Of a stretch of 64,000 nucleotides of DNA, positions 11,222-37,753 are shown piece after piece (the first letter of the stretch is position 1; each line of letters begins with the position of its first letter). The DNA comes from an uncultured Erysipelotrichaceae bacterium (GTDB lineage: Bacteria > Bacillota_I > Bacilli_A > RF39 > UBA660). The notes beneath the pieces were generated by a model that was not told the origin of the DNA, ran no database searches, and saw nothing but the letters and a program-made list of their open reading frames with translations. The stretch is from positions 76,603 to 140,602 of the forward strand of contig CADBGE010000001.1 of assembly GCA_902794075.1 (NCBI GenBank), written 5' to 3'. A program made the translations under genes and the position numbers.

Positions 11222-11308
11222 AATAAATTTGTATGTTTATTAAATATATATTAAAAATATTTTTATATATATGATAATATCAACATACGAATTATACTAT
11301 AACAGTTA

Positions 11309-11653
11309 ATGAGTAAGGATCATCATAAACCTTTAAACAAGAATAACCTTAATGAAAAGGCGCTTGCTGCTTCCAAAGGCAAGGACAAGAAAAAATTCCT
11401 GAGACACATTTATAACAGCAAGAAATGGAAAGATATACGAAATGAATATATATCTGAACATCCTACATGTGAATGTTGTCATTTTGAACTAGCTACACAA
11501 GTTCATCATATAAAGAGATTCAGTACAGGAAAGAACAAAAAAGAAATAGAAAAGCTTGCTTATGACAGGAACAATTTAATGGCACTCTGCAGTCACTGTC
11601 ATATAAGCAAGCATTTAAAGAATTTACCTGAATCCGTTACCGAAGATTCATAG
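11309..11653 (+). CDS. HNH endonuclease
   Basis: 114 aa with CECC...HHIKR...N..ALCSHCHISKH. It is the only plus-strand gene inside a long minus-strand block. Its 3' end overlaps the convergent gene by 17 nt. Confidence 0.8.
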   Translation: MSKDHHKPLNKNNLNEKALAASKGKDKKKFLRHIYNSKKWKDIRNEYISEHPTCECCHFELATQVHHIKRFSTGKNKKEIEKLAYDRNNLMALCSHCHISKHLKNLPESVTEDS

Positions 11654-12101: not shown

Positions 12102-12106
12102 ATGAT

Positions 12107-13231: not shown

Positions 13232-13246
13232 ATAAGTTATTACATA

Positions 13247-15163
13247 TTAATTTTCTACTTCTTCCTTTAACATATCTTTACGGGTTGAAGCAAGTCCTTT
13301 GCCAAACCACTTGTTAAGCATCATATCAGCAAGATCATCTTTTGTAAAATACTGAAAATTGTTACTTGCCATCATTTCTTTAAACTCTGAGGCATTAAGA
13401 CCACCAAGTCCTTTAACATATTTAATTGCCCAGCCATTAGATAATTTTTTCTCATCTTTTTTATATTCTTCAAGTGAAAAATATTTCTTTTTTTGTTTTC
13501 CTTTTGTTGCTATAATAATTGGGGAAATAATACGGCAAATCATTTTTTGTTCAAACAATTCTGGAAATAAATTAAAAAATACCATTAATAATGCTGCAAT
13601 CTTATGGCCATCATAATCCATATCTGTTGATATTACAATCTTACCGAATTTTAAGTCAGCCTTTTTATTATATTCGCCAAACTTTAAACCAATAATTTTA
13701 ATGATGTCATTGAATACTTGATTCTTCATAATCTCGCTTGGTTTTAGACCCAAAATATTTAAAGGTACTCCACGAGTTAAATATCCTGCTTGTGTCATTG
13801 AATTTCTACCTGACCGAAGACCACTTGCTGCAGAATCTCCCTCAAATATCCATAATTGTTTTTCAGACGGTTTCTTACTAGTACAGTTGATGAATTTGTC
13901 ATTTCTTAACAACTTACCAGACTCACGATTCATTTTACGAATCTTTGCCTGTTCCTCAGCATTCTGTTTTTGAGAATACCAATCCTTCATTATGTCGATG
14001 ATCTCTGACTTCTCAACTTTCTTGAGAAACTGTTCAGGAACTTCAAACCTGATATTCTCATCCTTGCTAAACTTGTCAATAGGAGTAGTCAAACATTCCT
14101 TTGTTTGAGAATCATATGCGGGATTTGAAACAGTGCATTCACAGAACAATGAATATTTATTATCTACATTATGAAGTGTGACATTCATCTTTTTCTTTTC
14201 CAACAAGTCCTGTACTGTCTTATTGATACGAAGACGAATTGCATTCATATGTGTTCCTCTTGAACATTCTGCTCCATCAACAAATCCTACATTGATGTTT
14301 GACCCAGGAAATATCCATGCTCTAACAAGTTCATTCTCAAATGTCAACTTTGCTGATGTGTCGATGAAATCACTATATAATTCTATATACTGTTCAAATT
14401 TATTGAACACCCACGTCTTATTGAACAGTTCTTTATTGTTCTTGTTAATATATTTAAATGATACTTTCAGTTTTGGGTTTGCTGCTGCAGCATCAATACA
14501 ACGCTTCTCAAGAACAGCAATGAAGTCCTCAGGCAGTTCAGTATAGTCAACATCAAACTTACTGAAGTCAATCTTCAAAGTAGTTTGTGTATAATGATCC
14601 TTACATTTTTTAATAACAAGATCATCATTTAATTTTCTCATGTTGTCTGACCATGAACGGTGAAAACTATTCTTACCATCAGCGGAATCAACAATAAAAT
14701 TACTAGAAAAAATATTTGCTAGAACTGAACCTACTCCGTTCGTCCCAATCAGTTGTCTGTCTTCATCATCATTATAATTTGAAGAAGTACGAAGACGTCC
14801 AAACACAAATTCAGGAACATAACATTTTGCTTGTTTGTGCATGATAATTGGCATACCGCCATTATCTTTAATTATAATAGTTCCATCATATTTTACTGTA
14901 ACATCTATTCTTGTCAGACCCAAATTAGTATCTCTACGATATTCATCACATGAATTTGAAAGAATTTCATCAAAAACCTTTAACATTGCTGGTGAATAAT
15001 GAACATCCTTCATTGTCATCATAGATTCATCTGAATCATATATGAACATTTGTCGAGTTTCATCTTTAATTGACCCAACATACATACCTGGACGAGACAA
15101 CACATGTGTTATCTCATCCATTTCTTTGTAGATTTCTTCAATTTTCTTTTTTCTTGGTGCCAT
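13247..15163 (-). CDS. type II DNA topoisomerase, ATPase/Toprim subunit (T4 gp39(+60)-like / GyrB-like)
   Basis: 638 aa. GHKL-type N-terminus (EILSNSCDE, GTNGVGS), Toprim motif EGDSAA and the DMDYDGHKI motif. Confidence 0.85.
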   Translation of the reverse strand: MAPRKKKIEEIYKEMDEITHVLSRPGMYVGSIKDETRQMFIYDSDESMMTMKDVHYSPAMLKVFDEILSNSCDEYRRDTNLGLTRIDVTVKYDGTIIIKDNGGMPIIMHKQAKCYVPEFVFGRLRTSSNYNDDEDRQLIGTNGVGSVLANIFSSNFIVDSADGKNSFHRSWSDNMRKLNDDLVIKKCKDHYTQTTLKIDFSKFDVDYTELPEDFIAVLEKRCIDAAAANPKLKVSFKYINKNNKELFNKTWVFNKFEQYIELYSDFIDTSAKLTFENELVRAWIFPGSNINVGFVDGAECSRGTHMNAIRLRINKTVQDLLEKKKMNVTLHNVDNKYSLFCECTVSNPAYDSQTKECLTTPIDKFSKDENIRFEVPEQFLKKVEKSEIIDIMKDWYSQKQNAEEQAKIRKMNRESGKLLRNDKFINCTSKKPSEKQLWIFEGDSAASGLRSGRNSMTQAGYLTRGVPLNILGLKPSEIMKNQVFNDIIKIIGLKFGEYNKKADLKFGKIVISTDMDYDGHKIAALLMVFFNLFPELFEQKMICRIISPIIIATKGKQKKKYFSLEEYKKDEKKLSNGWAIKYVKGLGGLNASEFKEMMASNNFQYFTKDDLADMMLNKWFGKGLASTRKDMLKEEVEN

Positions 15164-15198
15164 CTATAATATGTTTTATTATATCAAATTGTAGTTAT

Positions 15199-15227
15199 AA
15201 TATATAATAATTGCCAAGAAAATTTAA
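15199..15227 (-). promoter_or_regulatory. sigma-70-like promoter TTAAAT-N17-TATATT
   Basis: Minus strand: TTAAAT (15227-15222), 17 nt, TATATT (15204-15199), 35 nt upstream of ATG 15163. Confidence 0.55.
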
Positions 15228-15229
15228 TT

Positions 15230-15439
15230 TCATCTTATATATTTTTTAATGACTTGTTTCATATCATCATAGTATTTATATATATTTTTTAAATTTTCAC
15301 TATCTCTCATATATGTAATATAACTATTGTTCATTTTTCTTTCAAGCCATCTAGAATCAAGAAATGAAAAGTTATATGATATTTTTGTATCAATGTAGGA
15401 TAATTCATATTTTAAATTGTCATACTCACTTAATGTCAT
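15230..15439 (-). CDS. hypothetical protein
   Basis: 69 aa, ATG start. First minus-strand gene after the divergent junction with the giant plus-strand ORF. Confidence 0.5.
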   Translation of the reverse strand: MTLSEYDNLKYELSYIDTKISYNFSFLDSRWLERKMNNSYITYMRDSENLKNIYKYYDDMKQVIKKYIR

Positions 15440-15535
15440 ATTTTCTTATTTACTTTTATATTAATATTAAAATATGAAACTTGACCCAATATTTTTAATT
15501 ATAAGGAAAATTAAACATAATTATTTGAGCATTTT

Positions 15536-18500
15536 ATGGCTAATCCTATAAAATTTGATATATACATTGGCAAGTCTGGAACTTCTGGACAAACACCAAA
15601 ACCAGTTGTAATTCCAGAAAGATGGAAACCAATTCTTGCATTAGCATATGCATACACAACATATTCAATAAATAATTCTGAACTAAATTTTGCCGTATTA
15701 ACTTCACAAGTTAATGAACATGAAAATAAAATCAATAACCTAGAAAATAATATAGCAGCATTAGAAATATTAGATAATGATGATTTTATTGAACAAATTA
15801 ATAACTTATCAGGTAAAATAGATAAATTAGATCCTGATTTGTTAAAAGGGCTTGCATATGCATATACATTATTGCATACTGAAAAGGTTCATTATGATTC
15901 ATATACATATTCATATGTATTATATGAAGATTCTATAGATCGTTCATATGATTATATTGATTCTATCAAAGATGAATTACAATATAAAACAAATAGTTTA
16001 AATCAATATGTAAATAATGAATTCATAAAGAAAACCGATGCTGATGAAAAATATGCCTATAAGGATAATATACCAACGAAGGTATCTCAATTAGAAAATG
16101 ATGAATTATTCATAACACATTCAGCACTTGACAATTACACAACATATAATTATGTAGATAAATTTGTTAATGATAAAATTACTGATGTTGTTGATGCCGC
16201 TCCACAGGCGCTTGATACATTAAAGGAACTTGCTAATGCTTTAAATAACAATGAAAATTTTGGTTCATATGTAGTAAATGAATTAGATAAAAAGGCTAAT
16301 ATATCTGAGGTTCAATCATTGATTGATGGAATGGTTGAACAGAAAAATGATATTCCTATATATGATTCCACAAAAATACAAGAACTTACGGATGCTGGAC
16401 AGTTGCCTGATAAGTATATAGATATAGATTCTGGAGATGAATTATTAGGAAAAACTGATGCTGGAAATTATCTTGACATTATATTTAGTACATTACGAGC
16501 ATTACAGCAAGAAGTAACAAAGATAAAGAACACATTTAATTCTGGAATAATGTCATTAACAAATGAAGACACTCATATGTCGGAGGTTGTTAATGAATAT
16601 TCTGAAACTGATGAAGAGGAACCATTATGGGCTGTAGATCCAAATACATTAACTGAAATAAGTGGTGCTGAATTTTATTTAGATACTGCACACACATTAA
16701 CTCCAACAGAAAATGTAACTGTTTCAACAAATAAATTAGTAATTAATAATACAGCGTCATGGAATGACAATAGAATTAATTTAACAAGTGGGGAACCAAC
16801 TAATTATTTACATGATAATGAAGATGCAAAACAATATGTATATATTACTTCAAGTACAACAAATATTCAGATACAGTTAACAAATTATTCTGACGATAGT
16901 AAATATATAAATATTGATTTAAGTAGGTTAAATATACCTGTTACCGAGGCACATAAATATAATATATTATTATGTCTATCACGGTCAGTAAAAACAACAA
17001 ACAATACATATGCTGGTGAGAATTTTGTATATGTAATAATTTCTGATTATTTTTCTGGAGAAGAACTATTGTCAGGATATATAAATAATGGAATATTAAG
17101 AAACACATTACAAGAAGGAAGATTTGTTGGTGGCACATTAGAAGAAAGAAGATATTACATTAGTAAGATTGATTTTACAGATCTTGAACTTTATAGAATG
17201 ACATTTTATTCAAAGTTTCAAGAATTTAATTCAGATGTTCAGCCATCTGTGCCATTAAAGGACGATACTTATTCTGTTGCGCACATAACTATTCGTTCTG
17301 TACAAAACATCGCTCAACTTAAAAAAATAAAAGATCAGTTATTAGAAAACGAATTAGTTTATAACGATAGTAATAACTGTATATATATAATTAAGAATAA
17401 TGAAATAAAATTAATAAGTGGTGGTTCTAACATAGACCCATCCAATGATATAACTGGAATGGAAAAAGATGAAATTATTAGCTGGCTTGCCGAAAATGGC
17501 ATAATCGTAACTGAAAATGGTGGTGAAAAGCTATCGTTTAATAATGTTGGAGACATCACATTCATAAATCAACTTAATGAAAAATTTAAGTTTGAAGCTG
17601 ACAGTGAGGGAAAACTTCATTCTACAAAAATTAATGACGTATCAATGATTCAAAGGGTTTCAGCGTCAAAAATGCCAATAGATGAATCTGCAACAGAATT
17701 TACAAACACAAGAGGGTTTATAGGTACATTAAGAGAATATGAACTTAATATTAAACCACAAACTACTGGTGATAATAGTACAGATATGAAATTAAATTCA
17801 GACAGAATTAAAATTGGAAACATATATGCACCATTTAAAGATTCTCAAACCTATGGATGTACACATGCTTATATAGAATTAGAAAATACATCTAATATTG
17901 ATTATCCTCTTGATGGATGTTATATTCATTTTGCACGTCGTAATAATAATACAGAACAATCTGTTGATGAATATAGTTTACCATTAAGTGGTATAATTCC
18001 TGCTGGAGGAACATATTTAATAAGATGTAAAAAATATTCTGACATAGAACAGGCAAATACATTTATTGATGTTGATTCATTTGACATTGAATGGATAACG
18101 GCTGATGGAGAGTTATTAGATCCATATCTTGGAATGCAAAACACATTCTTGTTGACATACGGTTGTCCAGGGAAAGACAGAGATTCAAATAGTAATTTTA
18201 ATTATACTGTGCCTATGACAGCAATTGGAACTGGTAAACTCGATAAAATAAGAGTATGGCATCCATGTTATATTGATTCAGTGTCTATTATAGCAAGTAT
18301 TAAAACAACAGACGATAAAACTGGGTTGACGACAACAACTTCAACATGGGAAGGCTGGAGCAGTAGCAAAGGATTTTATAGTAATCCAAATAAACTTGAT
18401 GCATTATATAAAACAACATTTGAACTTGATCCAGCAAAACAAGCATATCAAGGATTAAATGCAAAAGATTCTTCACGTGTTAGGTCAAATACAGCAACAG

Positions 18501-20875
18501 ACTATCAGACAGTATATTTACAGAAAGAATATATTGAATTTCCTAAGACAGCTGAAAAATATCCTGTTTCTATGTATAAACCAATGGCAAGTTACTTGCA
18601 TAAAAATGTTACAACTGATAAAACAAAACTTGATATGGAAAAACCAAACATGGTTACATCTGCGTTTGGTATAGATATGTTAACAACAAGATGTTTTAAT
18701 TGGGTTTCAGCAGGTAATTTTGATGAATATATTTGGATTCGTATAAAAGGAACAGATAATTGGACAAGATTTGAATCTTACAAAGAAAGAACTGCTTCTG
18801 ACACAACTTATTCAGAATATTATAATAAATTAAATAATAATGAATTATCTGTACCATATAGAAAAGAATTTACATATATGACAAATAATGCTGTATATGC
18901 CAGAATTCATAGTCAATTTCCAGGCAGTGGTATAAAATATACTGCGCATAAATGCATTATTAAAATTGTAGACAATGCTGTTACAACAAAAACAGAATAT
19001 GAATATATAGTTGGTCGGGCCGATAAAAATCTTAATCCAGACAATGAACATATTTCAGACATAATGACATTTACATTATATCCTTCTGATTATGAACCAC
19101 GTTTATATCAAACAACAGACCAACAAGGTTTCCACTGGATTGAATATCAGACATGGGCAGCAGCTGCAGATTATATAAATAATATTATTAATGAACAGTC
19201 TCAGGCTGAAAATATAATTCCTGTAGTATTGAACACTGGTGATGCCACACAGAATGGTACGCGTGTAAATGAATGGCTTGATTATTATAATGCAGGAAAG
19301 AATATATTTAATCATTTAGAACAAATGTCAATTGTTGGCAATAATGACTTGTGTGATACAGATGTAACTAAATTAGGAACTGGCGATGACAATGGAAAAT
19401 CAAATGGTTTTTATCATCATATATTTTATTGCTATGAGGTAAGTGAAAAATTAAACAATGACACATATCCTACAGCAGATTCAGATCCAATTGAATTATT
19501 AAATAATAAAGAATTTAAATATTTGCCGCTTGTGAAAGGCAATGATGATGTCATAAGATATATTCCTTCATTTTATTGGTTTGGAAATTCCACATATACA
19601 TTTATGATGATGAATTCAGAGTTAACATATGTTAACTGTGGAAAATGGTTTAAACGAACAATAAAAAATGAAAATATTTCTGATGTTAGTTTACAAGACC
19701 AAACAGTTAATTTATACACTGGTTGGTCCGTTCCAGCGAATACACAGGACATATCTATTTATGACGATAATTTTACAACTATTTATACAATGCTGTATAA
19801 TGTAATAAAAGAACATAAAGAAAATAAAGAAAATAAAAATAAAATTAGTAATCTAATTGTCGCATGTCATGAAATGCCATTCACTGTCGTTACAGCAGCA
19901 AATTTAAAACATTCAACAGCTTCAAATGATAGATCATTAAATGGAACATCGTTGGTAGGATCACATATGAACAAATTAAACAATCTTGATTATAAGTCAA
20001 ATTATTGGTTCTCTAGATTACTTGAGTTCTTTAATGTTAAATTCTGTTATGGCGGACATAAACACACATATGCTATAACAAATGAACTTCGTGAGAACTA
20101 TATATATTATGAAACTAATAATGAAGGAAATAATGTTAAGAAACGCAGTATTGATGGTAAAATGACAATGGAAAATACCCTCAAAAACGACACTGCAGAA
20201 TTTAGTGATACATTAAAAATATTTAATTCTACATCTGTTGAAGAAACGGTGACAGATCCTAAAACTGGTGAGGAACACACTCAAACGCGTCTTTTATCAA
20301 GTAAAATAAAATTTGACGATGACACAGACAATTTGCCTGATAATCAAAAACGTGTTATTGCGTTATCTAAATTCCCTCTAATGAATAAAAAATTAGATTG
20401 TAAATATGAAAAAAATAGTGACGAAACAATAACAAAAGAAATTATTGGAGAAGATGGTATATCATTTCAAAATGATGTTTTATTCCCATACTATGGTGTT
20501 GAGCTTCAAGAAAACGAAGAATTGGGTGGCGTAATATATTTAATGTGTCAGGCAACAGGATTTAAACTTAAATCAAACAAAGAGCTTCCTGGCCCAAATC
20601 AAAAATTTAGTTTTATAATTCCAAAAACGATTGTAGCAGACAGCGGTGACACACCATCTGATGAACAACTTCAGCCAATGTTTACTGAAATTCGTCCAAA
20701 CGAGCGTAAAACATATCTAATGAGATTAAAAAATATACAAAACGGGAAAAAGGTATTGTCTCAAACAGATTATGGAACTAAACCAATATTAGTTGAATAT
20801 TTATATAGAGATATGGAAGACGTTGATATGTATGGTGGATGGACTACAACTAAGAAGCCTGTAGTATCTTGGTAA
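15536..20875 (+). CDS. giant fibre-like protein with lamin-tail domain and calcineurin-like metallophosphoesterase domain
   Basis: 1,779 aa uninterrupted. N-terminal phage-fibre motif VVDAAPQALDTLKELANALNN. LTD-like AYIELENTSNIDYPLDGCYIHF...SGIIPAGGTYLI (about 17.8-18.15 kb). MPE motifs GDATQNG, GNNDLCD and GGHKHTY (about 19.1-20.1 kb). Confidence 0.8.
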   Translation: MANPIKFDIYIGKSGTSGQTPKPVVIPERWKPILALAYAYTTYSINNSELNFAVLTSQVNEHENKINNLENNIAALEILDNDDFIEQINNLSGKIDKLDPDLLKGLAYAYTLLHTEKVHYDSYTYSYVLYEDSIDRSYDYIDSIKDELQYKTNSLNQYVNNEFIKKTDADEKYAYKDNIPTKVSQLENDELFITHSALDNYTTYNYVDKFVNDKITDVVDAAPQALDTLKELANALNNNENFGSYVVNELDKKANISEVQSLIDGMVEQKNDIPIYDSTKIQELTDAGQLPDKYIDIDSGDELLGKTDAGNYLDIIFSTLRALQQEVTKIKNTFNSGIMSLTNEDTHMSEVVNEYSETDEEEPLWAVDPNTLTEISGAEFYLDTAHTLTPTENVTVSTNKLVINNTASWNDNRINLTSGEPTNYLHDNEDAKQYVYITSSTTNIQIQLTNYSDDSKYINIDLSRLNIPVTEAHKYNILLCLSRSVKTTNNTYAGENFVYVIISDYFSGEELLSGYINNGILRNTLQEGRFVGGTLEERRYYISKIDFTDLELYRMTFYSKFQEFNSDVQPSVPLKDDTYSVAHITIRSVQNIAQLKKIKDQLLENELVYNDSNNCIYIIKNNEIKLISGGSNIDPSNDITGMEKDEIISWLAENGIIVTENGGEKLSFNNVGDITFINQLNEKFKFEADSEGKLHSTKINDVSMIQRVSASKMPIDESATEFTNTRGFIGTLREYELNIKPQTTGDNSTDMKLNSDRIKIGNIYAPFKDSQTYGCTHAYIELENTSNIDYPLDGCYIHFARRNNNTEQSVDEYSLPLSGIIPAGGTYLIRCKKYSDIEQANTFIDVDSFDIEWITADGELLDPYLGMQNTFLLTYGCPGKDRDSNSNFNYTVPMTAIGTGKLDKIRVWHPCYIDSVSIIASIKTTDDKTGLTTTTSTWEGWSSSKGFYSNPNKLDALYKTTFELDPAKQAYQGLNAKDSSRVRSNTATDYQTVYLQKEYIEFPKTAEKYPVSMYKPMASYLHKNVTTDKTKLDMEKPNMVTSAFGIDMLTTRCFNWVSAGNFDEYIWIRIKGTDNWTRFESYKERTASDTTYSEYYNKLNNNELSVPYRKEFTYMTNNAVYARIHSQFPGSGIKYTAHKCIIKIVDNAVTTKTEYEYIVGRADKNLNPDNEHISDIMTFTLYPSDYEPRLYQTTDQQGFHWIEYQTWAAAADYINNIINEQSQAENIIPVVLNTGDATQNGTRVNEWLDYYNAGKNIFNHLEQMSIVGNNDLCDTDVTKLGTGDDNGKSNGFYHHIFYCYEVSEKLNNDTYPTADSDPIELLNNKEFKYLPLVKGNDDVIRYIPSFYWFGNSTYTFMMMNSELTYVNCGKWFKRTIKNENISDVSLQDQTVNLYTGWSVPANTQDISIYDDNFTTIYTMLYNVIKEHKENKENKNKISNLIVACHEMPFTVVTAANLKHSTASNDRSLNGTSLVGSHMNKLNNLDYKSNYWFSRLLEFFNVKFCYGGHKHTYAITNELRENYIYYETNNEGNNVKKRSIDGKMTMENTLKNDTAEFSDTLKIFNSTSVEETVTDPKTGEEHTQTRLLSSKIKFDDDTDNLPDNQKRVIALSKFPLMNKKLDCKYEKNSDETITKEIIGEDGISFQNDVLFPYYGVELQENEELGGVIYLMCQATGFKLKSNKELPGPNQKFSFIIPKTIVADSGDTPSDEQLQPMFTEIRPNERKTYLMRLKNIQNGKKVLSQTDYGTKPILVEYLYRDMEDVDMYGGWTTTKKPVVSW

Positions 20876-20954: not shown

Positions 20955-23900
20955 ATGAAATTACACGAAAATGGAAATACATCCTATATAATTAATGACA
21001 CTGACATTAAAATGACTGGTGATGAATTAGGATTAAATGCCGGTTATACATTAAAAACAGTATTAAATGATCATTCAAAAAAGATTGAAAAACTGGAGTC
21101 AAATGTAAAATGGATGTATAGATATGGGGCACTTGGATCCGGAGGAACTGGGTCAGGATCAGGAAATGGCTCAACATCAAAATTAACTGTTCAAATATTT
21201 AAAGACGGTATTCAACCAATATCGCCAGGAACAAAGTTAATGTATCCAGGTGAGGATTATTATAAATTTAGAGTTGAAATTCATGGTGGTGGTTCAGATA
21301 CATTTCAAATTAAGTATTATTATAACAACGGTAAAGTTTTAACACGTGTTGTTTCAAAAGATAATGAATTCACAAATGAAGAATCTTTAAAATTAGAAGG
21401 AAATAACGAACTTACAATAACTATAAAAAATCAATCAACTGGAGATTTTTATAAGGTAAATGACTCACCTAACCTAACATTTCAATACATTACTTCTGCA
21501 TATAATATTTCTGCTAATTATGTAAAAGGATATGATTATGTAAATGAAAATAATATAAGATATGAACGTTTTACGCCGAACAATAATATAATATTCATAT
21601 CTGATATAGCAGATACTGGTTTAATGATAGCATTAAATTATAATATAGCAGTTAATTTGACTGATTCAAAAACATACATTGAGTATAATGATTGGGAAGA
21701 TAGAAACATACTAATAAATAATAATGGTATGACAATTAAATATCTTGATGCCAATAACATAGAAAGAACTGACCATACAGAATTTGATTTGAAATTAAAA
21801 TCCAATAGTGCGGGAATATTGTATTTACCGTTAGCTAATGATATACGAAATTATTTATCTGAAGATTCAGCTTCATTTAAACAAGTAACAATAAAAATAT
21901 ATTCACAACTTGCTGATGATGTTTCTGATGAATTATCTTTATTAGGTTCATTTAACTTTAATGACAATCTTATTCCAAATGGATTATTTCTAAATATTAG
22001 AACGTCTGCTGGTAAATTATATAGAAATTCAAATTCTGCTGATACTGCAAATGATGAAAATCAAATAACTGGCGGTGATATTTTATTTAAAGTTACTCCA
22101 TATAACGGATCATTAGTTCCAACTCGTCTTTATCAATTGTCCGTAAATGTATATGATAATAACAATCAGCGTATTTATACATCAAAACAACAAACATTGA
22201 GTGAACAAAAAGAAGCAGACGTTATTATATCAATATCTGAACCCGGTGTAAAGAAATTGGAATTTAATTTAGCATTTAATGGAGTTGTGACAACATATGC
22301 ATATTTTATAAAAATTAAAGAATTTATATCTAATTTTGAATGGTACCCAAATATATATGTTGATGATTTATATAAAGAAACTCAAATACTTGAACCGTAT
22401 TTTAATGCAGAATATAAAAGAAACTTTGAAAATAAGAATATTTCTTCTGATGAAATATTTATATCTCCAAAGTCTAACATTCAAATGACATCAAACGACA
22501 TTCCAAGAACAATATACTTTAATTATGGAGAAAAATATAATAATGTTCAATTAAATTATTATGATCTATTGTTCAGTCTTGGTATTCAATATTCATCAAT
22601 AAACAATACAAAAAATCCAATTCTTTCATTAAACATTTCAACATCAACAAGTGAATCAAAATCAGAATTCACAATATTTTTATATCAAGATAAAGTATCT
22701 ATTTCTACATCAAAAACAAATGTCACAAATTATGAAAATATTCAATTATCTTCAAAGAACATAGATATTTTCTTACCTATAGAGGATACTTATGAACCAG
22801 CCACAGCAGAAAAATATCATCTATTTAATATATATAAAAGATTTGAGACATTAAATGGAACAAATTATTGGAAAAGTATTAATGCATATATAGATGGTGT
22901 ACTTGACGGTGCACTTAATGAATTTGTTGGTGATAATTTAAAATATGATTCATTAACATTATATCCTGGAAACTATTCAATAAATCTTTTTGAGTTATCA
23001 TTATTTAATCATACAAATTTGTCTTATGATGAAATAAACAAAAGAACATGGTTAACCGATCTTGATATAAACAGATATTATAAGGCATATAATGAAAAAA
23101 TAATATATAGAAGTAAAATATATAATCAAAATGACTTTGCTCTATTTGAAAGATTTAGTCAATTTAGGATAGACGATAAAAATAGAGTAATTGTTGATGA
23201 TGACTCAGCTCAAAATATATCTAAATTAGTAAATTGTGCTGTTATGCAATTATACTTTGATGATAATGGAACAGGTATAGGAGAATTTAATTCTCATAAC
23301 ACTGATAATTTTATAAAATGGTTTGAACGTAGTTATGAAGAAAATGAACGAACTGTTTCAAATATTCCTGTTACAGTTGAATATTCATCTGGAGACAGCA
23401 CTGGTTTGCACAATGTGACTATGCCTGACGGCCAAATAGCAACATTTTCAATAAATATTCAAGGTTCATCAACAAAAACATTTAGAGACAAAAATCTTGA
23501 GTTATATGCTCCAGCATCTTCTTTCAAAGACGGTATAAAATATGATTATATATATTCTCCAAATATATGTAAAAACACATCATCATCAAATTATCATGAT
23601 TCATTTTTACCAGAAAGTTCATTCACATTAAAAGCAGATGTTGTGGACTCATCCCATACAAACAATAATGCAATTGGTAAATTTGTAAATGATAACACAA
23701 CGCCATTTGGACAGGCACGAAATAATTTAAATCAACATGGCACTGTGCATACAGCAAATATTAAAAACACACTTATTGGTTTTCCTGTTTTGTTGTTTAT
23801 GCACACAAGATACCAAATATATACAGAAACAAATGTTGCTACTGGAACATATAAAAATACTTATTATTTCTTAGGAATATATAACTTTAACCTTGGACGA

Positions 23901-26900
23901 AATTCTTCATATAATTTGGGATATAAAGATATTGCTAATATTGAACCTCTTATTGATGCTAATGAAAAAGATAATGATTTTGTAATTTATGAAATAGAAG
24001 AATCAAAAAATACACAAATAGACAATGTTGTTGGCGCAGAAATTCAGGGAAATAATATGTTCTTTGATTTTTCTCAATATAACGACAATACAGTATTATT
24101 TGATCCAAACTTTGGTATGTGGGCTGATTTTATAGGCAATAATGAAGAAAATATATTGCAAGGCTATATAAAAAATCTTTGTAGGGATGTTGCTTATGCC
24201 GGTGGATACGTGTTTAATATGGTTGGAAAACATATGTCTGAAGATCTATCAGATATGTATGGGTATGATGCAATGTATTCAAAAACGACAACAGATGAAA
24301 ATGGTAAAACACTTGAATGGGTTCCAAATTACCATTATCAGGTAAAGTATGAAGCAACCGTCGGTACAGAACGAACATATAGTTTTATAAAAGATTCATA
24401 TAATGGAACAGAAACAAATCTTCTTAGATTAATACTTCAATATGAAAATGATACTACTCAGTTAATGACACCTCCACGAATTGATTTTACATCAGTTTCA
24501 GAGTATTTCACAACTATGATGGCAATGGGTCTTGTTGATTCTCCAATGAAAAATCTAAATGTAAAATCATGGAACAATGGTCAAACATTTTACACTGCGT
24601 TTTATGATATGGACACAGGTCTTGGAAAAAACAATATAGGTACATATATAAATTATTTTGCATTTTCTGATTATTGGAAATCCAAATGGGAAAAATTAAA
24701 AAATCAACAGTCAGGAACATTAAAGCAGGTAGAAATATTAAGAGATTATTCTCCAGAAAAATTAGATGGTGATGATAAAGGTGGTTCTTCGTTTTTTGAC
24801 GTTCCGTCTACATATTTGTTTGCTGTTGTTAAATATACTAAATCTATATTATCAAGAGGTTATAAAAAAATAGAGGATGTATTAAAAGATTTTGAAAATT
24901 ATTCAAGCATATTTGAAAAAGATCCTTCAAATATATGGGGAGAATGGAGAAAAAGTAACGGTTGTTTAAGAGATGCTAAATATTTTATGAAAACATATTT
25001 TAATGATCATCTTAAAGACATACCTGAGGAGGCATTTAATTTTAATTATATATATAAATATTTTGTAAAAAATGAATCTAATAACGGTTACGATGGCGTT
25101 AATTTCATTAAATTCCATGGCAGAGGAAAGGCATACACGGAAAATTGGTTAGATTCACGTTTGCACATTCTTGATGCATATTTCAATTTAAATGGTATTG
25201 ATGACACTATAAACATTGTGAATGGTGTTGAAATTAAAGCAGCAACAGTTGATAATGCACATAAGCCAACAGATAATAAGGATGTATATGTATTACAGGA
25301 TGCATTCACTGGCAGTGCTGATCATGGTGCATACACAAAAGAAAGTAATGGAAATTTAACAATAACAGCAAAGGAATATGCTCCATTAATAATTCAATAT
25401 CCTCAGTTAAAGGAACGTTATTTGTTTCCATCAAATGGTAATCCGTCAGAAATCACTTTAAAGTTTTATAGTCCTCAAACGTGTCTGTTTGGTGGCTCTG
25501 GATTATGGACATCAATAAGTTCTATTGCACCATTTATAAATGATAAAAATTACTTTTCAATTTATTCTAAATATATATCTACTATAATTGGTACAAATAG
25601 AACATGTACAAGTTGGAATTTTGAAGCTCCATCATTAAGAATACTTAGATTAACTTCAAATAATTATAGTGGTGAAATTAGATTTGAATCTACTGATTCT
25701 GCTCCAGAATATCAAAACTTGGATGAAATAGATATATCTAATACGGGAATAAATCTTTCATTAAGTAATATTCCACTTCGTAAATTATATGCGCTTAATA
25801 TGAAGACTGGTGCGAATCTTAATGCAATAGGTTGTAACCGTCTTGAGGATGTTAAAATATCAGGTAACTTTAATTCAATATCTTTAAGTTCATGGAATAA
25901 TGTATCGGCTTTACCGACAGGAGGAAATTTAACTTGTGAAACAATATCAATAACTAATGATATAGAAAGATTTCCTGATGCGTCATTATATATATCAAAT
26001 AATAGTGAATTAAAAACAATCAATATTTCAGGATTTAGTCATTTATATATTAGCGCATGTCCAAAGTTAACAACAATTATATTTAATGATATAGAAACAT
26101 CCCCAATAAAAACTTTGGATATACAAATGCCTTCATTTAACGATGAAAACACATTTACAATTGGCAATACTGAAAATGCTGTAGATTTGTCAAATTTCAA
26201 TAATTTAACTACATTAAGACTTTCTAATCTACCGATAAAAGATTTACTATTACCGACAGGTACAGAAAATCTTGATGACGGATTTAGAAAAATAATTCTT
26301 CTGCCAGGTGCATTTTATAATTGTAAAAATCTTGAAACAATACAAAATGAAGATCACAGCGAATCTAAATTAAATAAATTATATATAACCGGAGATTCAA
26401 CATTCTTTAATTGTGGATCACATTCAGCAAACGGATATAAATTAATTAAATATGGTAAATCTGAAATATCAAATGTATATATTGATGAAACATGTATATC
26501 ATTAAAAGATACATTTAATTGTACAGATGGAAAAGGCAAAATAACATATGCTGTAGCAAAACAATTCTTACAAGAAAGATGCACAAATAGTTCTGTTGAG
26601 AATGTAACGACCATTGACAATATGTTCAGAAATAATGTAATTGAATATAATTATGCTAATTTTTATTCTGAATATTTAAGTAAAACATGTTCTTTACCAT
26701 TATACGGCTTTATAAATTGCGTTTCAGCAAATGACGTATTTTCATTAAACTCTATTAATTTCTGGAATAGATATATGTTTGAAAATGCTGATAAATCATT
26801 ATCATTATTTAAAAATTCTGACGTATTAAATCTTACTACAATGTGCAATACATTTGAATATGGAACTATAGATATATTATATCCATTTATAAATAAAACA

Positions 26901-29339
26901 ATTTCTATTGATTTCAAACAGCAAAATAATATAATGATCTATAATCCATCTGCATTATCTGCATATTCGACTTATAGTAAACTTATATTAAACAATATAT
27001 TTGATGACAGTTATAAAAATAACGAATCTGAAAATATACATCCAAATAAAATAATATCAATAAGTAATTTTACTATATCATCAACATATAGATCTGCTGG
27101 AGGATCATCAAATTCACAAAAATTTGATTTCACTGGATTGTTTGATAATAATAAAGAAAATATTGATGATTATGTTTGGACAGCTGCAGCTAAAAATGGA
27201 ATAATACTCCAAAACTTTATGAATTCTACATACAAGATAGACAATTATAATTCATCAAGTGTAAATATATTATTTAAGAATATTGTTCCAACATTAATTA
27301 TAAATTCATTTGGATCATTCATTTCATCTGAAAATGATATATTGAATATTTATACAATGTTCAATTGGGATAAAGTAAAAGAAAAAACAGTCAATCTATT
27401 TAGTGCTTCATATTCAGGGTCACCAAATATATCTTTCGGTGGAATTAATAATGTTAAGAAATGTTCATATAGTGAATTTAATGAAATATGGAATAAATTA
27501 ATAGAATCTACTAAATTAGCAGGAATTAGTTCAATATTCACTGATGCTATTATAACAGATGATGATTGGAACAATAAAGAATTTAAGTTATCTAATTCAT
27601 TAATAATAAATGAATCAATAACTACAGTTCCATCATTATTTAAAAACATCAAATTAATGGACACAAATCTTGAAAACGGACCATATCCAATTGACATAAG
27701 ATCAAGATTGTTTAAAAATCTAAAAAATATAAAATATGTACCTTCATTGTTTGAAAATACATATATGAAACATGCTATTCCGTTTGATGTATTTGCAAAA
27801 CGAAAGAAATCATCTTCACAACAGTCATGTTTTGTTAAAGTTTCAAATAATGGTAATGATTCAGATTATGAGCCAGGAAAAATAATACAATATGATTATG
27901 ATAATACTATTATAAATATGAATAGAACATTTTATAATATATCATTTGAAAACAAAACACTGGCAACATTTAGACACAATAATATAGATCATAACTATAA
28001 TGCATTTGAAAGAAATTATGCATATGCTGTTTCAGATCAGTCAACAAAATATTATAAATTCTACAAAAAAGAAAATGATGTATGGGTCGAGTACGATATT
28101 GAACAGCCATTAGAAATACAAGATATTGATAAATTATGGTGTGATCATAAAGATATTGATTTAATCAAATCTGATGTTAAGGAATATACTATACCAAATG
28201 TATATAAGTCAACGTATTCTAAAGATATAACTGACTATTCTAAAAATGGTACAGGATATTTTAATTTAGATAATTTCTGCGACACAGAAGATTGTGGCTT
28301 TGTTGTGTCTCCAGATATTTTTAGATGTTGCGATAAATCATGTACAATAACAGATGCTTTAAAATTTGATAGAGGAAACAATTTAGATCCTGTCATAATG
28401 ACTGGAATGATGCCACCATCAATATTTAAAACTGATTATTTAAGAACAATCAACTTTGAAGGAACATTCAGTGGACTTAACGTATCTCCAATTGAAATGA
28501 CATATTATGACATAGATGAAATAACTGTTGGTGGAGTACGTTCATTAGACAATTATATAGAGGAAAAAACATGTACAAGATATAATACTTATTATCAGTA
28601 TATTTTAGATAATTTTACTGAAAGAGATAGTTTATCAAATTCTTTTAATTTTACATTATTGTTACCTAAAAGTACATCAACATATGTTGAGGAAGGTTTA
28701 ATAGTATATGAAAAAACAAGAAATTCACAAATGTTCTTTATGTTCAGTGACAAATCAATCTCAAAAAATACGCAAAGATTATCTTCAACACTTCCTACTG
28801 ATTATAATAAGAAAATTTTAGAGGATTACAAAGAACAGGGCGAAAGTGAAAATCTTCGTATGCATTATTATTATATGATAGATAATGGCATATATTTTAA
28901 TATTATGTATTCATTTATTGATACATTAGACAATGATGAAAATGTAATAAAAACATTTATGACGGGCATAGACAAAAATACATTTAGATATTTAATGTTT
29001 GATAATCTTATTTCCTCAGATATTGCTAAGATATATAAAGGAAATATATTATCATCTAATAACTCATGGTCTCAATCTAATGTCACAAATGATTCATCTA
29101 CTGTATTTTATCAGGTTGGTGGAAACAACACAGGATTTATTGGTTTATCTTTAAATGCTGTGATACAAGCTGAATATAGCAATCGTGGTTGGTTCCCAAG
29201 AAACGGTAATGGATATATCATCAATAAAAAATCATTGCCATCACAATTTGAATATAATAATAGTTACATAGAACAATATTGGTCAAATTATAATTTCATG
29301 AATTATAAATTGTATGCTCCAAATAATGTTGTTATTTAA
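20955..29339 (+). CDS. giant protein (2,794 aa), function unknown, with a central LRR-like region
   Basis: Uninterrupted 8.4-kb ORF, ATG start. Gly-rich stretch GALGSGGTGSGSGNGS near the N-terminus. Leucine-rich-repeat-like block (LRILRLTSNN...NLDEIDISNTGINLSLSNIPLRKLYALNM...) near 25.6-26.3 kb. Confidence 0.8.
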   Translation: MKLHENGNTSYIINDTDIKMTGDELGLNAGYTLKTVLNDHSKKIEKLESNVKWMYRYGALGSGGTGSGSGNGSTSKLTVQIFKDGIQPISPGTKLMYPGEDYYKFRVEIHGGGSDTFQIKYYYNNGKVLTRVVSKDNEFTNEESLKLEGNNELTITIKNQSTGDFYKVNDSPNLTFQYITSAYNISANYVKGYDYVNENNIRYERFTPNNNIIFISDIADTGLMIALNYNIAVNLTDSKTYIEYNDWEDRNILINNNGMTIKYLDANNIERTDHTEFDLKLKSNSAGILYLPLANDIRNYLSEDSASFKQVTIKIYSQLADDVSDELSLLGSFNFNDNLIPNGLFLNIRTSAGKLYRNSNSADTANDENQITGGDILFKVTPYNGSLVPTRLYQLSVNVYDNNNQRIYTSKQQTLSEQKEADVIISISEPGVKKLEFNLAFNGVVTTYAYFIKIKEFISNFEWYPNIYVDDLYKETQILEPYFNAEYKRNFENKNISSDEIFISPKSNIQMTSNDIPRTIYFNYGEKYNNVQLNYYDLLFSLGIQYSSINNTKNPILSLNISTSTSESKSEFTIFLYQDKVSISTSKTNVTNYENIQLSSKNIDIFLPIEDTYEPATAEKYHLFNIYKRFETLNGTNYWKSINAYIDGVLDGALNEFVGDNLKYDSLTLYPGNYSINLFELSLFNHTNLSYDEINKRTWLTDLDINRYYKAYNEKIIYRSKIYNQNDFALFERFSQFRIDDKNRVIVDDDSAQNISKLVNCAVMQLYFDDNGTGIGEFNSHNTDNFIKWFERSYEENERTVSNIPVTVEYSSGDSTGLHNVTMPDGQIATFSINIQGSSTKTFRDKNLELYAPASSFKDGIKYDYIYSPNICKNTSSSNYHDSFLPESSFTLKADVVDSSHTNNNAIGKFVNDNTTPFGQARNNLNQHGTVHTANIKNTLIGFPVLLFMHTRYQIYTETNVATGTYKNTYYFLGIYNFNLGRNSSYNLGYKDIANIEPLIDANEKDNDFVIYEIEESKNTQIDNVVGAEIQGNNMFFDFSQYNDNTVLFDPNFGMWADFIGNNEENILQGYIKNLCRDVAYAGGYVFNMVGKHMSEDLSDMYGYDAMYSKTTTDENGKTLEWVPNYHYQVKYEATVGTERTYSFIKDSYNGTETNLLRLILQYENDTTQLMTPPRIDFTSVSEYFTTMMAMGLVDSPMKNLNVKSWNNGQTFYTAFYDMDTGLGKNNIGTYINYFAFSDYWKSKWEKLKNQQSGTLKQVEILRDYSPEKLDGDDKGGSSFFDVPSTYLFAVVKYTKSILSRGYKKIEDVLKDFENYSSIFEKDPSNIWGEWRKSNGCLRDAKYFMKTYFNDHLKDIPEEAFNFNYIYKYFVKNESNNGYDGVNFIKFHGRGKAYTENWLDSRLHILDAYFNLNGIDDTINIVNGVEIKAATVDNAHKPTDNKDVYVLQDAFTGSADHGAYTKESNGNLTITAKEYAPLIIQYPQLKERYLFPSNGNPSEITLKFYSPQTCLFGGSGLWTSISSIAPFINDKNYFSIYSKYISTIIGTNRTCTSWNFEAPSLRILRLTSNNYSGEIRFESTDSAPEYQNLDEIDISNTGINLSLSNIPLRKLYALNMKTGANLNAIGCNRLEDVKISGNFNSISLSSWNNVSALPTGGNLTCETISITNDIERFPDASLYISNNSELKTINISGFSHLYISACPKLTTIIFNDIETSPIKTLDIQMPSFNDENTFTIGNTENAVDLSNFNNLTTLRLSNLPIKDLLLPTGTENLDDGFRKIILLPGAFYNCKNLETIQNEDHSESKLNKLYITGDSTFFNCGSHSANGYKLIKYGKSEISNVYIDETCISLKDTFNCTDGKGKITYAVAKQFLQERCTNSSVENVTTIDNMFRNNVIEYNYANFYSEYLSKTCSLPLYGFINCVSANDVFSLNSINFWNRYMFENADKSLSLFKNSDVLNLTTMCNTFEYGTIDILYPFINKTISIDFKQQNNIMIYNPSALSAYSTYSKLILNNIFDDSYKNNESENIHPNKIISISNFTISSTYRSAGGSSNSQKFDFTGLFDNNKENIDDYVWTAAAKNGIILQNFMNSTYKIDNYNSSSVNILFKNIVPTLIINSFGSFISSENDILNIYTMFNWDKVKEKTVNLFSASYSGSPNISFGGINNVKKCSYSEFNEIWNKLIESTKLAGISSIFTDAIITDDDWNNKEFKLSNSLIINESITTVPSLFKNIKLMDTNLENGPYPIDIRSRLFKNLKNIKYVPSLFENTYMKHAIPFDVFAKRKKSSSQQSCFVKVSNNGNDSDYEPGKIIQYDYDNTIINMNRTFYNISFENKTLATFRHNNIDHNYNAFERNYAYAVSDQSTKYYKFYKKENDVWVEYDIEQPLEIQDIDKLWCDHKDIDLIKSDVKEYTIPNVYKSTYSKDITDYSKNGTGYFNLDNFCDTEDCGFVVSPDIFRCCDKSCTITDALKFDRGNNLDPVIMTGMMPPSIFKTDYLRTINFEGTFSGLNVSPIEMTYYDIDEITVGGVRSLDNYIEEKTCTRYNTYYQYILDNFTERDSLSNSFNFTLLLPKSTSTYVEEGLIVYEKTRNSQMFFMFSDKSISKNTQRLSSTLPTDYNKKILEDYKEQGESENLRMHYYYMIDNGIYFNIMYSFIDTLDNDENVIKTFMTGIDKNTFRYLMFDNLISSDIAKIYKGNILSSNNSWSQSNVTNDSSTVFYQVGGNNTGFIGLSLNAVIQAEYSNRGWFPRNGNGYIINKKSLPSQFEYNNSYIEQYWSNYNFMNYKLYAPNNVVI

Positions 29340-34972: not shown

Positions 34973-37753
34973 TTACTTCTTAACAACTTTGTAAATCTTA
35001 ATTCCATTTTCCTCACCAATCATTTGCGATTCATATTCATTAAGATCTATCATACTATATTCTTCACCTGGATCTGCTGTAACATGAGCAGGATCGAAAC
35101 CATAGAATGTACCACCTGTGATAGTGAAACAGTTACCTTCACGAGTATATGTAGCATCATAATGATTAAGCATATATCTGTAATTGCCATTAGCATCATA
35201 AGGATTAACATCATCAGAACCAACAGTCATCTTGAATGTACCACCAATGACATTAATATGTGGCTTCTTAGAACCTTCACAATATAATGTATGAGTTACA
35301 CCTATGATCTCAGTGTTTTCTTTTCCATCAATTGTAAATGTTGAATTATCACCTGCCCATAGACCATATCCAGAGTTATTGATTAACTTACCGCCACCAA
35401 CACTATCTGTAATAGTAATATTAACTGTATTACGTCCCATGATAGCATAATTTGTATTAGTTAAATCAAGTGTGTGACCTGCAAGATCAAGTGTATAATT
35501 ACCACTCCATAATATACCACCAGCAATACGACTACGAGTAAAGTCACCACCTAATGTGACGATACCAGGATTTCCAGTAAGTAATGTTGCAACCTCAGCT
35601 GCAGTTGTTGCGGTATTACGATTAAGATCTACTGTATATTCAGTATCATTTACAACTTCGCCAATACGATTTTTAATATCATTGTCATATACTATAACAT
35701 TACCCTTACCGACAATCAACTTATTAATATGAGCATTTTGTGTAACAATTAATGTGTTATCACTTACATTAGAAGTAAGTTCATTCCATTGGCTCTTATT
35801 CAATGTTACAGTAGTATTTTCTGCATTAATTGTTGCTGATGGAATAATATTTCCTTCAGCTTCAGTGTTGTTATTAGCAAGACCAAGTTTTGGAAGATTT
35901 GTTGTAGTAATTGTTGCGTTATTGTTATATACAACACCTGTAACAGAAGCATTCTTTTCAATGTCATTATTAATAATTACATTAGATACTGTTGCATTGT
36001 TCTTACCGGTAATAGATCCATTATTTACTTCAAGAGTAGTAAAGTTACCAGATACATTCATATTTGGAACTGATGTTCCAACAGGAGCATCAATAGTAAC
36101 AGCAACAGGATTTTCTGATGTATTGTTTAGATTGAATGCTTTAGGACTTGACAAAGTAACAGTTGCACCATCTTGCATAGGAGCAGTTACAGTCATTGTC
36201 TTTGTAGCTTCTGGAATTGTAACATCACCAAGTTCACCCTCTGTGATCTCAACAGATGTATTAGTATTTGACAAGTTGTTAGCAACATAATCAGCATTAA
36301 GTACAGTAGCAGTTTCACCTGTTGCATTTGAATAAACTACATTAAACAATGTTGTATATTTATCGTTTAATTCATCATATTTTGCTTTGTCAACAAACTT
36401 ATCGTCTGCTGCAGTCTTGTCGTATACATCTTCCTCGTTTGCCTTATAACCAAGAATTGTATTGATTTTTGAAAGACTTGTATTTTCATCGTTGATTACA
36501 TCAGCAATTTCTTTAAGAGTATCAAGATTTTCATCTGCACCAGCAATTAAGTCAGAAATCTTTTGGTTTACATATGTTATTGTTGCATATTCTTCAAGTG
36601 ACTGATGTGCCGTTAAATAGTTTGCGTCATTTTCAAATTCACTTACCTTTGTAGGAACTGATGGAAGTTCTGACTTAAGTGCATATGCTGACAGATCTTG
36701 ATGTTCAGTTAAGTACTCACCCTTTTGTTGATATTTAGCATCAGCATCTTCTTCTGAGATTAGTCCATCAATAGAGGGAACCTCAGGTAACTCACTCTTA
36801 AGTGCATAATTGTCAAGATCTGAAGCATTTGCCTTCATGCCAAGAATATCAATTAATTCAGCAGTGCCCTGCTTTTTTGCAAGCTCTGTTGCAATTTCAT
36901 TAAGAGTATTTAATGCTTCTGGAGCACCATCAATTACTTCTGAAATTTTGTTATTGACATAATCTTCAGTTGCAAGACCCTCAATAGAAGGAACTTCAGG
37001 TAATTCACTTTTAAGTGCATAGTCATCAAGTGATTGGTGTTCAGTCAAATAGTTTGCATCATTCTCAAATGCACTAATCTTTGTAGGAACATCAGGTAAC
37101 TCACTCTTAAGTGCATATTTATCAAGTGATTGATGTTCAGTCAAATATTCACCCTTGGGTTGATATTTAGCATCGGCATCTTCTTCTGAGATTAGTCCAT
37201 CAATAGAAGGAACTTCAGGTAATTCATTTTTAAGTGCATATTTATCAAGTTCTGATTTATCTGCCTTTGATTGAAGTGCAGCAATAAATTCGGCAGCATC
37301 TTGTTTCTTATCTAATAAATCAACAATTTCTTTTAATGTATCGTGATCTGCATCAGCACCATTCAATAGTTCATTTATCTTTTCTGCTACATATTCTGTT
37401 GTAGCATAATTACTTAAGTCTTGATGTTCAGTTAGATATTCACCTTTTGGCTGATAATTTTCAAGCTCAGTTTTATCTGCCTTAGAACTTAACAATGAAG
37501 CAACATCAGAAGCATTTACCTTTGTATCTAATAAGTTTATGATTTCTACAATAGAATCGATTTTTTCAGTATCGTTTTCTAATAATTTTGATAATTCTTC
37601 TTTTGTAGCATATGTTGCTGCAACAAGTGACTTGAATTCTTCGTCTGCTGCAGAGTTAGCATTTATTGATTCTAAGTTTTGTTCAATTTGCGCTAACTTT
37701 GCATCAAGTTCTTGACCGCTTACAGATAATTTATATAATTTTACTTCTGCCAT
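34973..37753 (-). CDS. tail fibre protein (repetitive N-terminal shaft, beta-helix-like C-terminal part)
   Basis: 926 aa. Repeated DTLKEIVDLL / ALNTLNEIATELA fibre motifs and duplicated YALKSELPEVPSIDGLISEEDADAKYQxKGEYLTEHQ modules. Confidence 0.8.
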   Translation of the reverse strand: MAEVKLYKLSVSGQELDAKLAQIEQNLESINANSAADEEFKSLVAATYATKEELSKLLENDTEKIDSIVEIINLLDTKVNASDVASLLSSKADKTELENYQPKGEYLTEHQDLSNYATTEYVAEKINELLNGADADHDTLKEIVDLLDKKQDAAEFIAALQSKADKSELDKYALKNELPEVPSIDGLISEEDADAKYQPKGEYLTEHQSLDKYALKSELPDVPTKISAFENDANYLTEHQSLDDYALKSELPEVPSIEGLATEDYVNNKISEVIDGAPEALNTLNEIATELAKKQGTAELIDILGMKANASDLDNYALKSELPEVPSIDGLISEEDADAKYQQKGEYLTEHQDLSAYALKSELPSVPTKVSEFENDANYLTAHQSLEEYATITYVNQKISDLIAGADENLDTLKEIADVINDENTSLSKINTILGYKANEEDVYDKTAADDKFVDKAKYDELNDKYTTLFNVVYSNATGETATVLNADYVANNLSNTNTSVEITEGELGDVTIPEATKTMTVTAPMQDGATVTLSSPKAFNLNNTSENPVAVTIDAPVGTSVPNMNVSGNFTTLEVNNGSITGKNNATVSNVIINNDIEKNASVTGVVYNNNATITTTNLPKLGLANNNTEAEGNIIPSATINAENTTVTLNKSQWNELTSNVSDNTLIVTQNAHINKLIVGKGNVIVYDNDIKNRIGEVVNDTEYTVDLNRNTATTAAEVATLLTGNPGIVTLGGDFTRSRIAGGILWSGNYTLDLAGHTLDLTNTNYAIMGRNTVNITITDSVGGGKLINNSGYGLWAGDNSTFTIDGKENTEIIGVTHTLYCEGSKKPHINVIGGTFKMTVGSDDVNPYDANGNYRYMLNHYDATYTREGNCFTITGGTFYGFDPAHVTADPGEEYSMIDLNEYESQMIGEENGIKIYKVVKK
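36715..37245. repeat. intragenic direct repeats inside the fibre gene
   Basis: Segments of about 95 bp at about 36721-36815 and 37150-37245 are near-identical (ttgatatttagcatc.gcatcttcttctgagattagtccatcaataga.ggaac.tcaggtaa...). Shorter copies lie between them. Confidence 0.7.

Follow-up and report, generated by a model that had tools for sequence, protein, structure and literature searches.

A phage protein joining a fibre-type module to a predicted purple acid phosphatase-like phosphoesterase, encoded beside a giant gene in a Lak-related gut megaphage

The window analysed here, a 64,000-nucleotide stretch equal to positions 76603-140602 of a 400,076-bp contig (CADBGE010000001.1), carries at 15536..20875 (+, stop codon included) an intact ATG-start open reading frame (ORF) of 1,779 aa with 0 internal stops when translated with table 11. 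In DNA of ~29% G+C, stop codons make up ~8% of a random frame, and by our own calculation the chance of 1,779 open codons is ~e^-150, so the ORF is beyond chance; its first residues recur at the start of P0002, a full-length homologue of 95% identity. Scanning the surroundings of the gene for promoter and terminator consensus sequences gave chance-level matches only. The encoded protein is modular and of appendage type, with a helical module bearing a tail-fibre motif, a beta-sandwich body, a lamin-tail domain (LTD)-like domain, the N-domain of purple acid phosphatases (PAPs), a metallophosphoesterase (MPE) domain, and a beta-rich C-terminus. By sequence comparison it is a further member of a known, annotated phage family, the function of which has so far been predicted.

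The MPE catalytic domain spans residues 1186-1525 (19091..20110, +) and was assigned from motifs I-V, the Pfam Metallophos match, and the PAP fold. The five motifs follow one another in order as TD1195QQGFHW (I), NTGD1236ATQ1239NG (II), GN1269N1270D1271 (III, within VGNNDL), CH1445EMP (IV), and GGH1508KH1510 (V), with two fixed deviations: DQQ in motif I, where no His follows the Asp, and GNN for GNH in motif III. In an alignment of 30 sequences that are 46-83% identical to the query piece 760-1779, D1195QQGFHW, NTGD1236..Q1239.G.R, GN1269N1270D1271L, CH1445E.P, and GGH1508KH1510TY are invariant in every sequence. A preliminary description of this DNA, made from its letters alone, had reported an ordered GDxxxxG/GNND/GGHKH series with Asn for the His of GNHD and had proposed checking the metal-binding residues in homologues. 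The series is indeed there (D1236, N1269-N1270-D1271, and H1508/H1510, within residues 1233-1510, nt ~19.1-20.1 kb), the Asn is present in 30/30, and the metal-binding residues are equally unchanged in 30/30. The motifs and domains listed in that description stand, but the list omitted motif I (D1195), motif IV (H1445), the PAP N-domain, and the CotH-like partner gene discussed below. Because GNND is invariant family-wide, it is a fixed trait of the family and not decay.

Profile scores for the protein itself are borderline. Pfam Metallophos (PF00149) matches the 1,779-aa protein with E 4.4e-4 and 21.2 bits, against a cutoff of 21.5; among the aligned members, 17/30 match at E<0.01 and at the same position. 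Several members of the family score above the cutoff, with 28.6-32 bits in homologues P0053 and P0059 and 49.3 bits in gp352 of Bacillus phage G. NCBIfam returned nothing useful, and sequence searches of the PDB with the whole protein or the family profile retrieved no enzyme relatives, fibre chains being the only matches.

We modelled residues 760-1779 with AlphaFold (AF2) using the 30-sequence alignment (pLDDT 83.4, pTM 0.84) and compared the model with the PDB by Foldseek. All 18 matches at E<=0.001 are plant purple acid phosphatases or phytases (6gja, 3zk4, 2qfp, 1xzw, 1kbp), with E 1e-11 to 5e-8, probability 1.0, and target TM 0.41-0.56; the alignments cover the whole two-domain enzymes (500-700 columns), and generic Ig/Fn3 sandwiches rank under them. 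The AlphaFold check suggested in the preliminary description thus yielded a PAP-type fold, and at the level of the predicted model a PAP-type architecture is confirmed, an Fn3-like N-domain followed by an MPE alpha/beta sandwich fold. The N-domain (residues ~1041-1185) and the conserved linker preceding it (FELDPAKQAYQ...DSSR.R) lie at 18401..19090 (+); the domain was recognized through Foldseek and through the Pfam matches of phage G gp352. The best BFVD matches are the cr7_1 'Phosphatase' (E 4e-66) and phage G Gp352 (E 9.5e-32, ~1,000 columns).

The phage G protein ('metallophosphoesterase', AEO93611.1) is itself a family member (BLASTP E 3e-24) and is also directly similar in sequence to purple acid phosphatases in the PDB (E 4e-5). 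Its Pfam matches are Pur_ac_phosph_N (8.6e-13, above cutoff), Metallophos, LTD, and Mtd_N, and the PAP N-domain region of the 1,779-aa protein is homologous to the part of gp352 that matches Pur_ac_phosph_N. Alignment of gp352 to 6gja/3zk4 equates its VTDQ with PAP FGDM, TGDIAQNAN with IGDLCYANG, VGNNDL with GNHE, IHESSY with WHAPWY, and CGHHHCY with TGHVHAY. Of the seven metal ligands of PAPs, the 1,779-aa protein retains six, all of them invariant (D1195, D1236, N1269, H1445, H1508, and H1510); the seventh, the Tyr of GDxxY, is an invariant Gln (Q1239), and the second-shell His of GNH(D/E) is an invariant Asn (N1270). Because the position of the Tyr ligand holds Gln, the protein reads as PAP-like rather than as a bona fide 'purple' acid phosphatase.

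These two replacements, present in all members, together with the many binding-type beta-sandwich domains of the protein, would suit a non-catalytic adhesin or scaffold, in which the PAP-like domain is a metal-stabilised binding or structural pseudoenzyme of the fibre that recognizes a phosphorylated ligand and leaves it uncleaved. Yet none of the six metal ligands or their flanking residues varies, and no other block of the protein is as well conserved. The His of GNH serves in the MPE superfamily as a transition-state or leaving-group helper, and active MPEs with other residues at this position are known, including YfcE (GNC) and LpxH (GNR). We consider a pseudoenzyme unlikely, though with a real chance of being the right answer.

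Beyond motif V the protein continues as a beta-rich C-terminal extension (residues 1526-1779; 20111..20872, +), variable at 1526-1650 and then invariant in a block. This block, Y.MCQATG.KL.SNKELP..Q.F (residues 1668-1691, nt ~20537-20608), has no counterpart in PAPs.

Upstream of the linker, an LTD-like beta-sandwich (core 760-880) and a variable loop (881-955) lie at 17813..18400 (+), as supported by Pfam LTD and AF2. The segment YIELENTSN...LDGCYIHF...IPAGGTYLI, which the preliminary description had taken for an LTD, is found at residues 778-829. Pfam LTD (PF00932) matches the 760-1779 piece with E 8.4e-4 and 20.1 bits, short of the gathering score of 34.3; at the same place, 22/30 aligned members match at E<0.01 (best 1.6e-7, 32.1 bits), all below the gathering score, and phage G gp352 matches at 7.9e-7. 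Residues 760-~920 are modelled as all-beta with pLDDT ~90, and the core shows 52% identity among distant homologues. No lamin-tail chain is among the Foldseek matches listed for the 760-1779 model against the PDB, and a profile of the LTD region gave chance-level PDB matches only, with no lamin tail. Membership of the LTD group is likely at superfamily level on the sub-threshold profile matches. The segment noticed earlier is thus real and family-wide, while its Pfam score stays sub-threshold; likewise, the Pfam check that had been proposed leaves the protein under the cutoff for both domains, whereas members of its family carry both signals.

At the other end of the protein, a lineage-specific N-terminal module (residues 1-265; 15536..16330, +), predicted to form long helices or a coiled coil (with helices at 28-269 in a low-confidence model), carries a tail-fibre motif at residues ~195-263 (nt 16118-16324, +). 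The fibre-type motif picked out in the preliminary description, DAAPQALDTLKELANAL, sits at residues 219-235 and is well founded: a PHROG search gave 13 matches, 7 of them to tail or tail-fibre families (E 7e-13 to 8e-5), confined to residues ~195-263, and residues ~200-258 match the solved virion fibre chains 6v8i gp68 and 9d93 gp4 in the PDB (E 0.005-0.009). Homology to known fibre proteins extends over residues ~195-263 only. A second fibre-like protein of 926 aa is encoded at 34973..37753 (-); it matches several PHROG tail-fibre families and has three motif copies akin to residues 160-287 of the 1,779-aa protein.

Residues 1-265 cannot be aligned with those of distant homologues (4-7% identity, 48-78% gaps). 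Homology to the crAss-like and Lak proteins begins at residues 260-275, close to the start of the family-conserved body (residues 266-759; 16331..17812, +), which comprises a conserved helix (YLDIIFSTLRALQ...), a beta-sandwich at ~370-560, a small AHITIRSV/ENELVYN... unit, and a linker. The AF2 model of the N-terminal 759 residues is poor (pLDDT 56), with long helices at 28-335 and a single confident beta-sandwich at ~370-560 (pLDDT 80-95); a fold search with it found weak ConA/SPRY-like and collagen-XV/XVIII-trimerisation-like matches, none at E<=0.001, which serve as hints only. No signal-peptide-like N-terminus is visible in the 1,779-aa sequence, and given the extracellular-type architecture, the protein would therefore reach the outside only via the virion or lysis.

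The family is narrow, since an exhaustive search of representatives found only 376 clusters at E<1e-3 among 1.84 billion; a set of 5.8 billion proteins contained 678 homologues, many with precomputed PF00932 and PF00149 matches. By tblastn, residues 260-1773 are covered in cr124_1 and cr7_1 (both 'phosphatase') and in all Lak genomes at 35-39% identity (E=0). Bacteroides DAC phages have homologues spanning residues 775-1687, and the matches in crAss002 (gp19), IAS virus, and others are shorter. Relatives annotated 'phosphatase' in Crassvirales include cr124_1 gp20 (YP_010113142.1), cr7_1, crAss002 gp19 (QIG59129.1), IAS virus, cr107_1, cr52_1, and others; the Lak and DAC-phage homologues carry no annotation. 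A Crassvirales review also counts phosphatase domains among annotated tail-spike domains (PMC10136315). The novelty that the preliminary description saw in such a chemistry on a phage fibre hence does not survive, the family being already labelled in Crassvirales and present in all Lak phages, DAC phages, and phage G.

Among distant homologues the MPE motif blocks are 58-71% identical and are the most conserved part of the protein, with the linker at 62%. Indel hot spots fall at residues 881-955, 1291-1435, and 1526-1650 (nt 18176-18400, 19406-19840, and 20111-20485). Two of these three lie within or beside the catalytic domain, and homologues P0055 and P0097 have hundreds of residues inserted between motifs III and IV. 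This pattern is the opposite of that of the usual receptor-binding fibre, whose distal tip varies. It fits a swapped, lineage-specific anchor joined to an enzymatic body that is conserved but for its variable surface loops, and from it we infer that purifying selection maintains a working metal site and that the substrate is common to diverse hosts.

The gene lies on a phage genome. The first 50 bases of the contig reappear at position 399,977, a ~99-bp terminal overlap as in a circular assembly, and the contig was binned within a 1.8-Mb, 26% G+C metagenome-assembled genome (MAG) that serves as a species representative. Besides 15 tRNA genes and a tmRNA gene, the window encodes a sigma factor, a homing endonuclease, and the subunits of a T4-type topoisomerase II. 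When the large subunit of this topoisomerase was compared with 50,697 phage records, its closest relatives were those of Prevotella Lak megaphages (52-54% identity). Taking together the circular overlap, the tRNAs and tmRNA, the phage-type genes, and the Lak-like topoisomerase, we conclude that the contig is a complete circular ~400-kb Lak-related gut megaphage genome binned with a low-GC bacterium. Relatives of the phosphoesterase are located on 16-360-kb contigs of MAGs with assorted labels. Because the contig studied here is itself a circular 400-kb phage genome placed in a low-GC MAG, we read these labels (Bacilli, Anaeroplasmataceae, Erysipelotrichaceae, Clostridium, Segatella copri, and Alistipes) as mis-binning and rejected them as host evidence. 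Bacteroidota are the likely host, since the nearest phage relatives infect Prevotella or Bacteroides.

A few further neighbours deserve mention. The homing-endonuclease-like gene (DUF7487, phrog_3339; 12107-13231, -) separates the two topoisomerase II subunit genes. Three small DUF285/BspA-type leucine-rich-repeat (LRR) proteins, encoded at 10475-11221 (-), 33018-33653 (-), and 34187-34876 (-), match the same PHROGs (17273, 22899, and 3649) and are scattered around the island of giant genes.

Directly downstream of the phosphoesterase gene is a giant partner gene of 2,794 aa (20955..29339, +), CotH-like by transitive homology and with LRR-like C-terminal parts. With TAG read as Gln in cr124_1, the partner is 28% identical over ~1,900 aa (E 4e-148) to the cr124_1 gene annotated 'spore coat protein-like/CotH kinase/internalin'. 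Its similarity to phage G gp353 is weaker (E 2e-8); residues 783-990 align to the CotH region of gp353, a protein in which Pfam finds CotH (3e-16), LamG, and LRR domains. Pfam CotH was not found in the partner itself, even at E<=10 on sub-pieces, so the CotH label is transitive, by way of gp353 and the cr124_1 annotation; phmmer of the partner against the PDB gave no match. Two motifs of the partner align with gp353: VDSPMKNLN, which resembles a kinase catalytic loop, and FYDMDTGLG, which resembles a metal-binding loop. The cr124_1 homologues of both genes (7851-19507) are interrupted by 24 and 60 in-frame TAG codons and can be read through only with TAG=Gln; the two giant genes of the window are open under the standard bacterial code.

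In local tblastn searches, a homologue of the giant lies directly 3' of the phosphoesterase gene, on the same strand, at 12/12 loci, which represent four phage lineages. In cr124_1 and crAss002 the next gene is of ~2,500 aa and annotated 'spore coat protein-like/CotH kinase/internalin' or 'transferase', and a giant also follows in DAC19 and phage G. Both by homology and by its same-strand giant downstream, the locus thus carries the 'phosphatase + CotH-like giant' pair. Strict synteny and a strongly conserved catalytic core are what the evidence shows here. We offer only as a long shot the larger idea that the LTD/PAP-like phosphoesterase and the CotH-like (atypical kinase fold)/LRR giant form a two-enzyme, virion-borne module that would phosphorylate and dephosphorylate some generic constituent of the envelope or matrix at adsorption, an ancient cassette exchanged among Crassvirales, Lak-type megaphages, DAC phages, and phage G.

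Our favoured interpretation of the 1,779-aa protein, to which we give a probability of roughly 55%, is that it is a virion-anchored, fibre-like protein with a working phosphoesterase that acts at the host surface. The swapped N-terminal module would anchor it to the virion, probably as a trimer, and the conserved C-terminal two-thirds would be displayed at the host surface as a working phosphoester hydrolase, acting jointly with the giant CotH-like/LRR protein encoded directly downstream. A placement on the virion is argued from the fibre motif, which is homologous to PHROG tail-fibre families and to solved fibres, and from the position of family genes in the structural block of Crassvirales: in cr124_1 and crAss002 the gene is inside the head-tail block, and in Crassvirales the family genes come after the major head protein within the structural block.

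Several observations weigh against this interpretation. The gene pair here stands between replication genes (topoisomerase II) and the sigma-factor gene, outside any tail module; the protein's own Pfam scores are sub-cutoff for LTD and Metallophos alike; the missing GNH His and DxH/Tyr-type ligand could mean weaker or altered catalysis; and the poor N-terminal model lends no support to a trimeric fibre geometry. Literature searches turned up neither a virion demonstration nor an assay for any family member, and the text of a 2025 multi-omics study of phage G does not mention gp352/353. Among the papers that could be read, none gave function or proteomics for crAss002 gp19/gp20 or for phage G gp352/353, and the crAss001 structural atlas does not include a homologue of the family.

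The first of these observations, with the lack of virion evidence for any member in the literature searched, speaks for a protein outside the virion: a late soluble or lysis-released enzyme, perhaps working with the CotH-like kinase, that would remodel the envelope of the infected cell, block superinfection, or degrade extracellular nucleic acids and nucleotides around lysing cells. Such a role would leave unexplained an N-terminal motif homologous to solved virion fibres, lineage-specific N-terminal modules on a conserved body, a gene inside the head-tail block in Crassvirales, and the Mtd_N tropism-determinant domain of phage G gp352, and we think it distinctly unlikely. The protein might instead be internal cargo, ejected with the DNA into the periplasm or cytoplasm to act on phosphorylated molecules or signalling nucleotides of the host. 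Crassviruses do contain large cargo proteins in tail and capsid (PMC10172136), and MPE-fold enzymes are able to degrade cyclic nucleotides (PMC7824862); but the set of fibre motif, LTD, and Fn3-type extracellular domains suits an external appendage, and the size and multi-domain beta-sandwich architecture would seem ill-suited to passage through the tail channel, which makes cargo very improbable.

If the protein is indeed a virion-borne hydrolase, its target would be a phosphomonoester or phosphodiester in a generic constituent of the envelope or matrix, for example a phosphorylated glycan, an LPS or lipid phosphate, or extracellular nucleic acid. A strain-specific capsule is probably not the target, given that conservation between phages of different hosts is highest in the catalytic core. 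Teichoic acid, named as a possible target in the preliminary description, was rejected as the primary substrate here, the nearest phage relatives infecting Prevotella or Bacteroides; it may still be the substrate in phage G.

Every Lak megaphage carries the family, as do several crassvirus families, some of the phages most abundant in the human gut. Were its members active on the virion, they would provide a phosphoesterase-based means of adsorption or penetration in phages of Gram-negative Bacteroidota, differing from the glycosidase and lyase depolymerases usual on these phages, and the conservation of the core across phages of different hosts would point to a common, perhaps targetable, envelope or matrix component. 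The cultivable relatives, crAss002, the DAC phages, and phage G, make the family directly testable.

The closest known systems are the homologues in Crassvirales, Lak phages, and DAC phages, in which LTD, PAP-N, and MPE come in the same order, the GNND variant recurs, and a giant CotH-like gene likewise lies downstream. They differ in the N-terminal ~265 aa (coiled coil plus fibre motif), which are the present megaphage clade's own. The Crassvirales pair is embedded in the head-tail module, unlike the pair described here, and cr124_1 reads TAG as Gln whereas the present phage does not. Phage G gp352 has the motifs TDQQG, NTGD..QN, VGNNDL, and GHHH and a giant CotH/LamG/LRR protein (gp353) next to it, but it is half the size (866 aa), has Mtd_N in place of the long N-terminal body, and is only ~25% identical; its phage has a Gram-positive host, unlike the likely host of the present megaphage.

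Comparison can be extended to systems outside the family. Plant PAPs and phytases have the same two-domain Fn3-like plus MPE fold, with the D, GD, GN, H, and GHxH ligands aligned; at ~10-12% identity, the phage protein differs from plant PAPs in having Gln for the Fe(III)-binding Tyr and Asn for the GNH His, in large insertions between motifs III-IV and after V, and in its fusion to fibre and LTD modules. Virion-borne teichoic-acid phosphodiesterases, such as the GDPD domains of Staphylococcus and Listeria phage tail proteins and the phi29 gp12 appendages, embody the same concept of a phosphoester-cleaving enzyme on the adsorption organelle, though with unrelated folds (GDPD TIM barrel, beta-helix), Gram-positive hosts, and an activity that has been shown experimentally, whereas that of the megaphage protein is predicted. 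Bacteria also secrete LTD-containing nucleases and phosphatases, for example of ExeM/NucH-type architecture, in which, as predicted here, an LTD is fused to an extracellular phosphoester hydrolase; these proteins have signal peptides and EEP or 5'-nucleotidase-type catalytic domains, whereas the 1,779-aa protein has no signal peptide and is joined to a phage fibre module.

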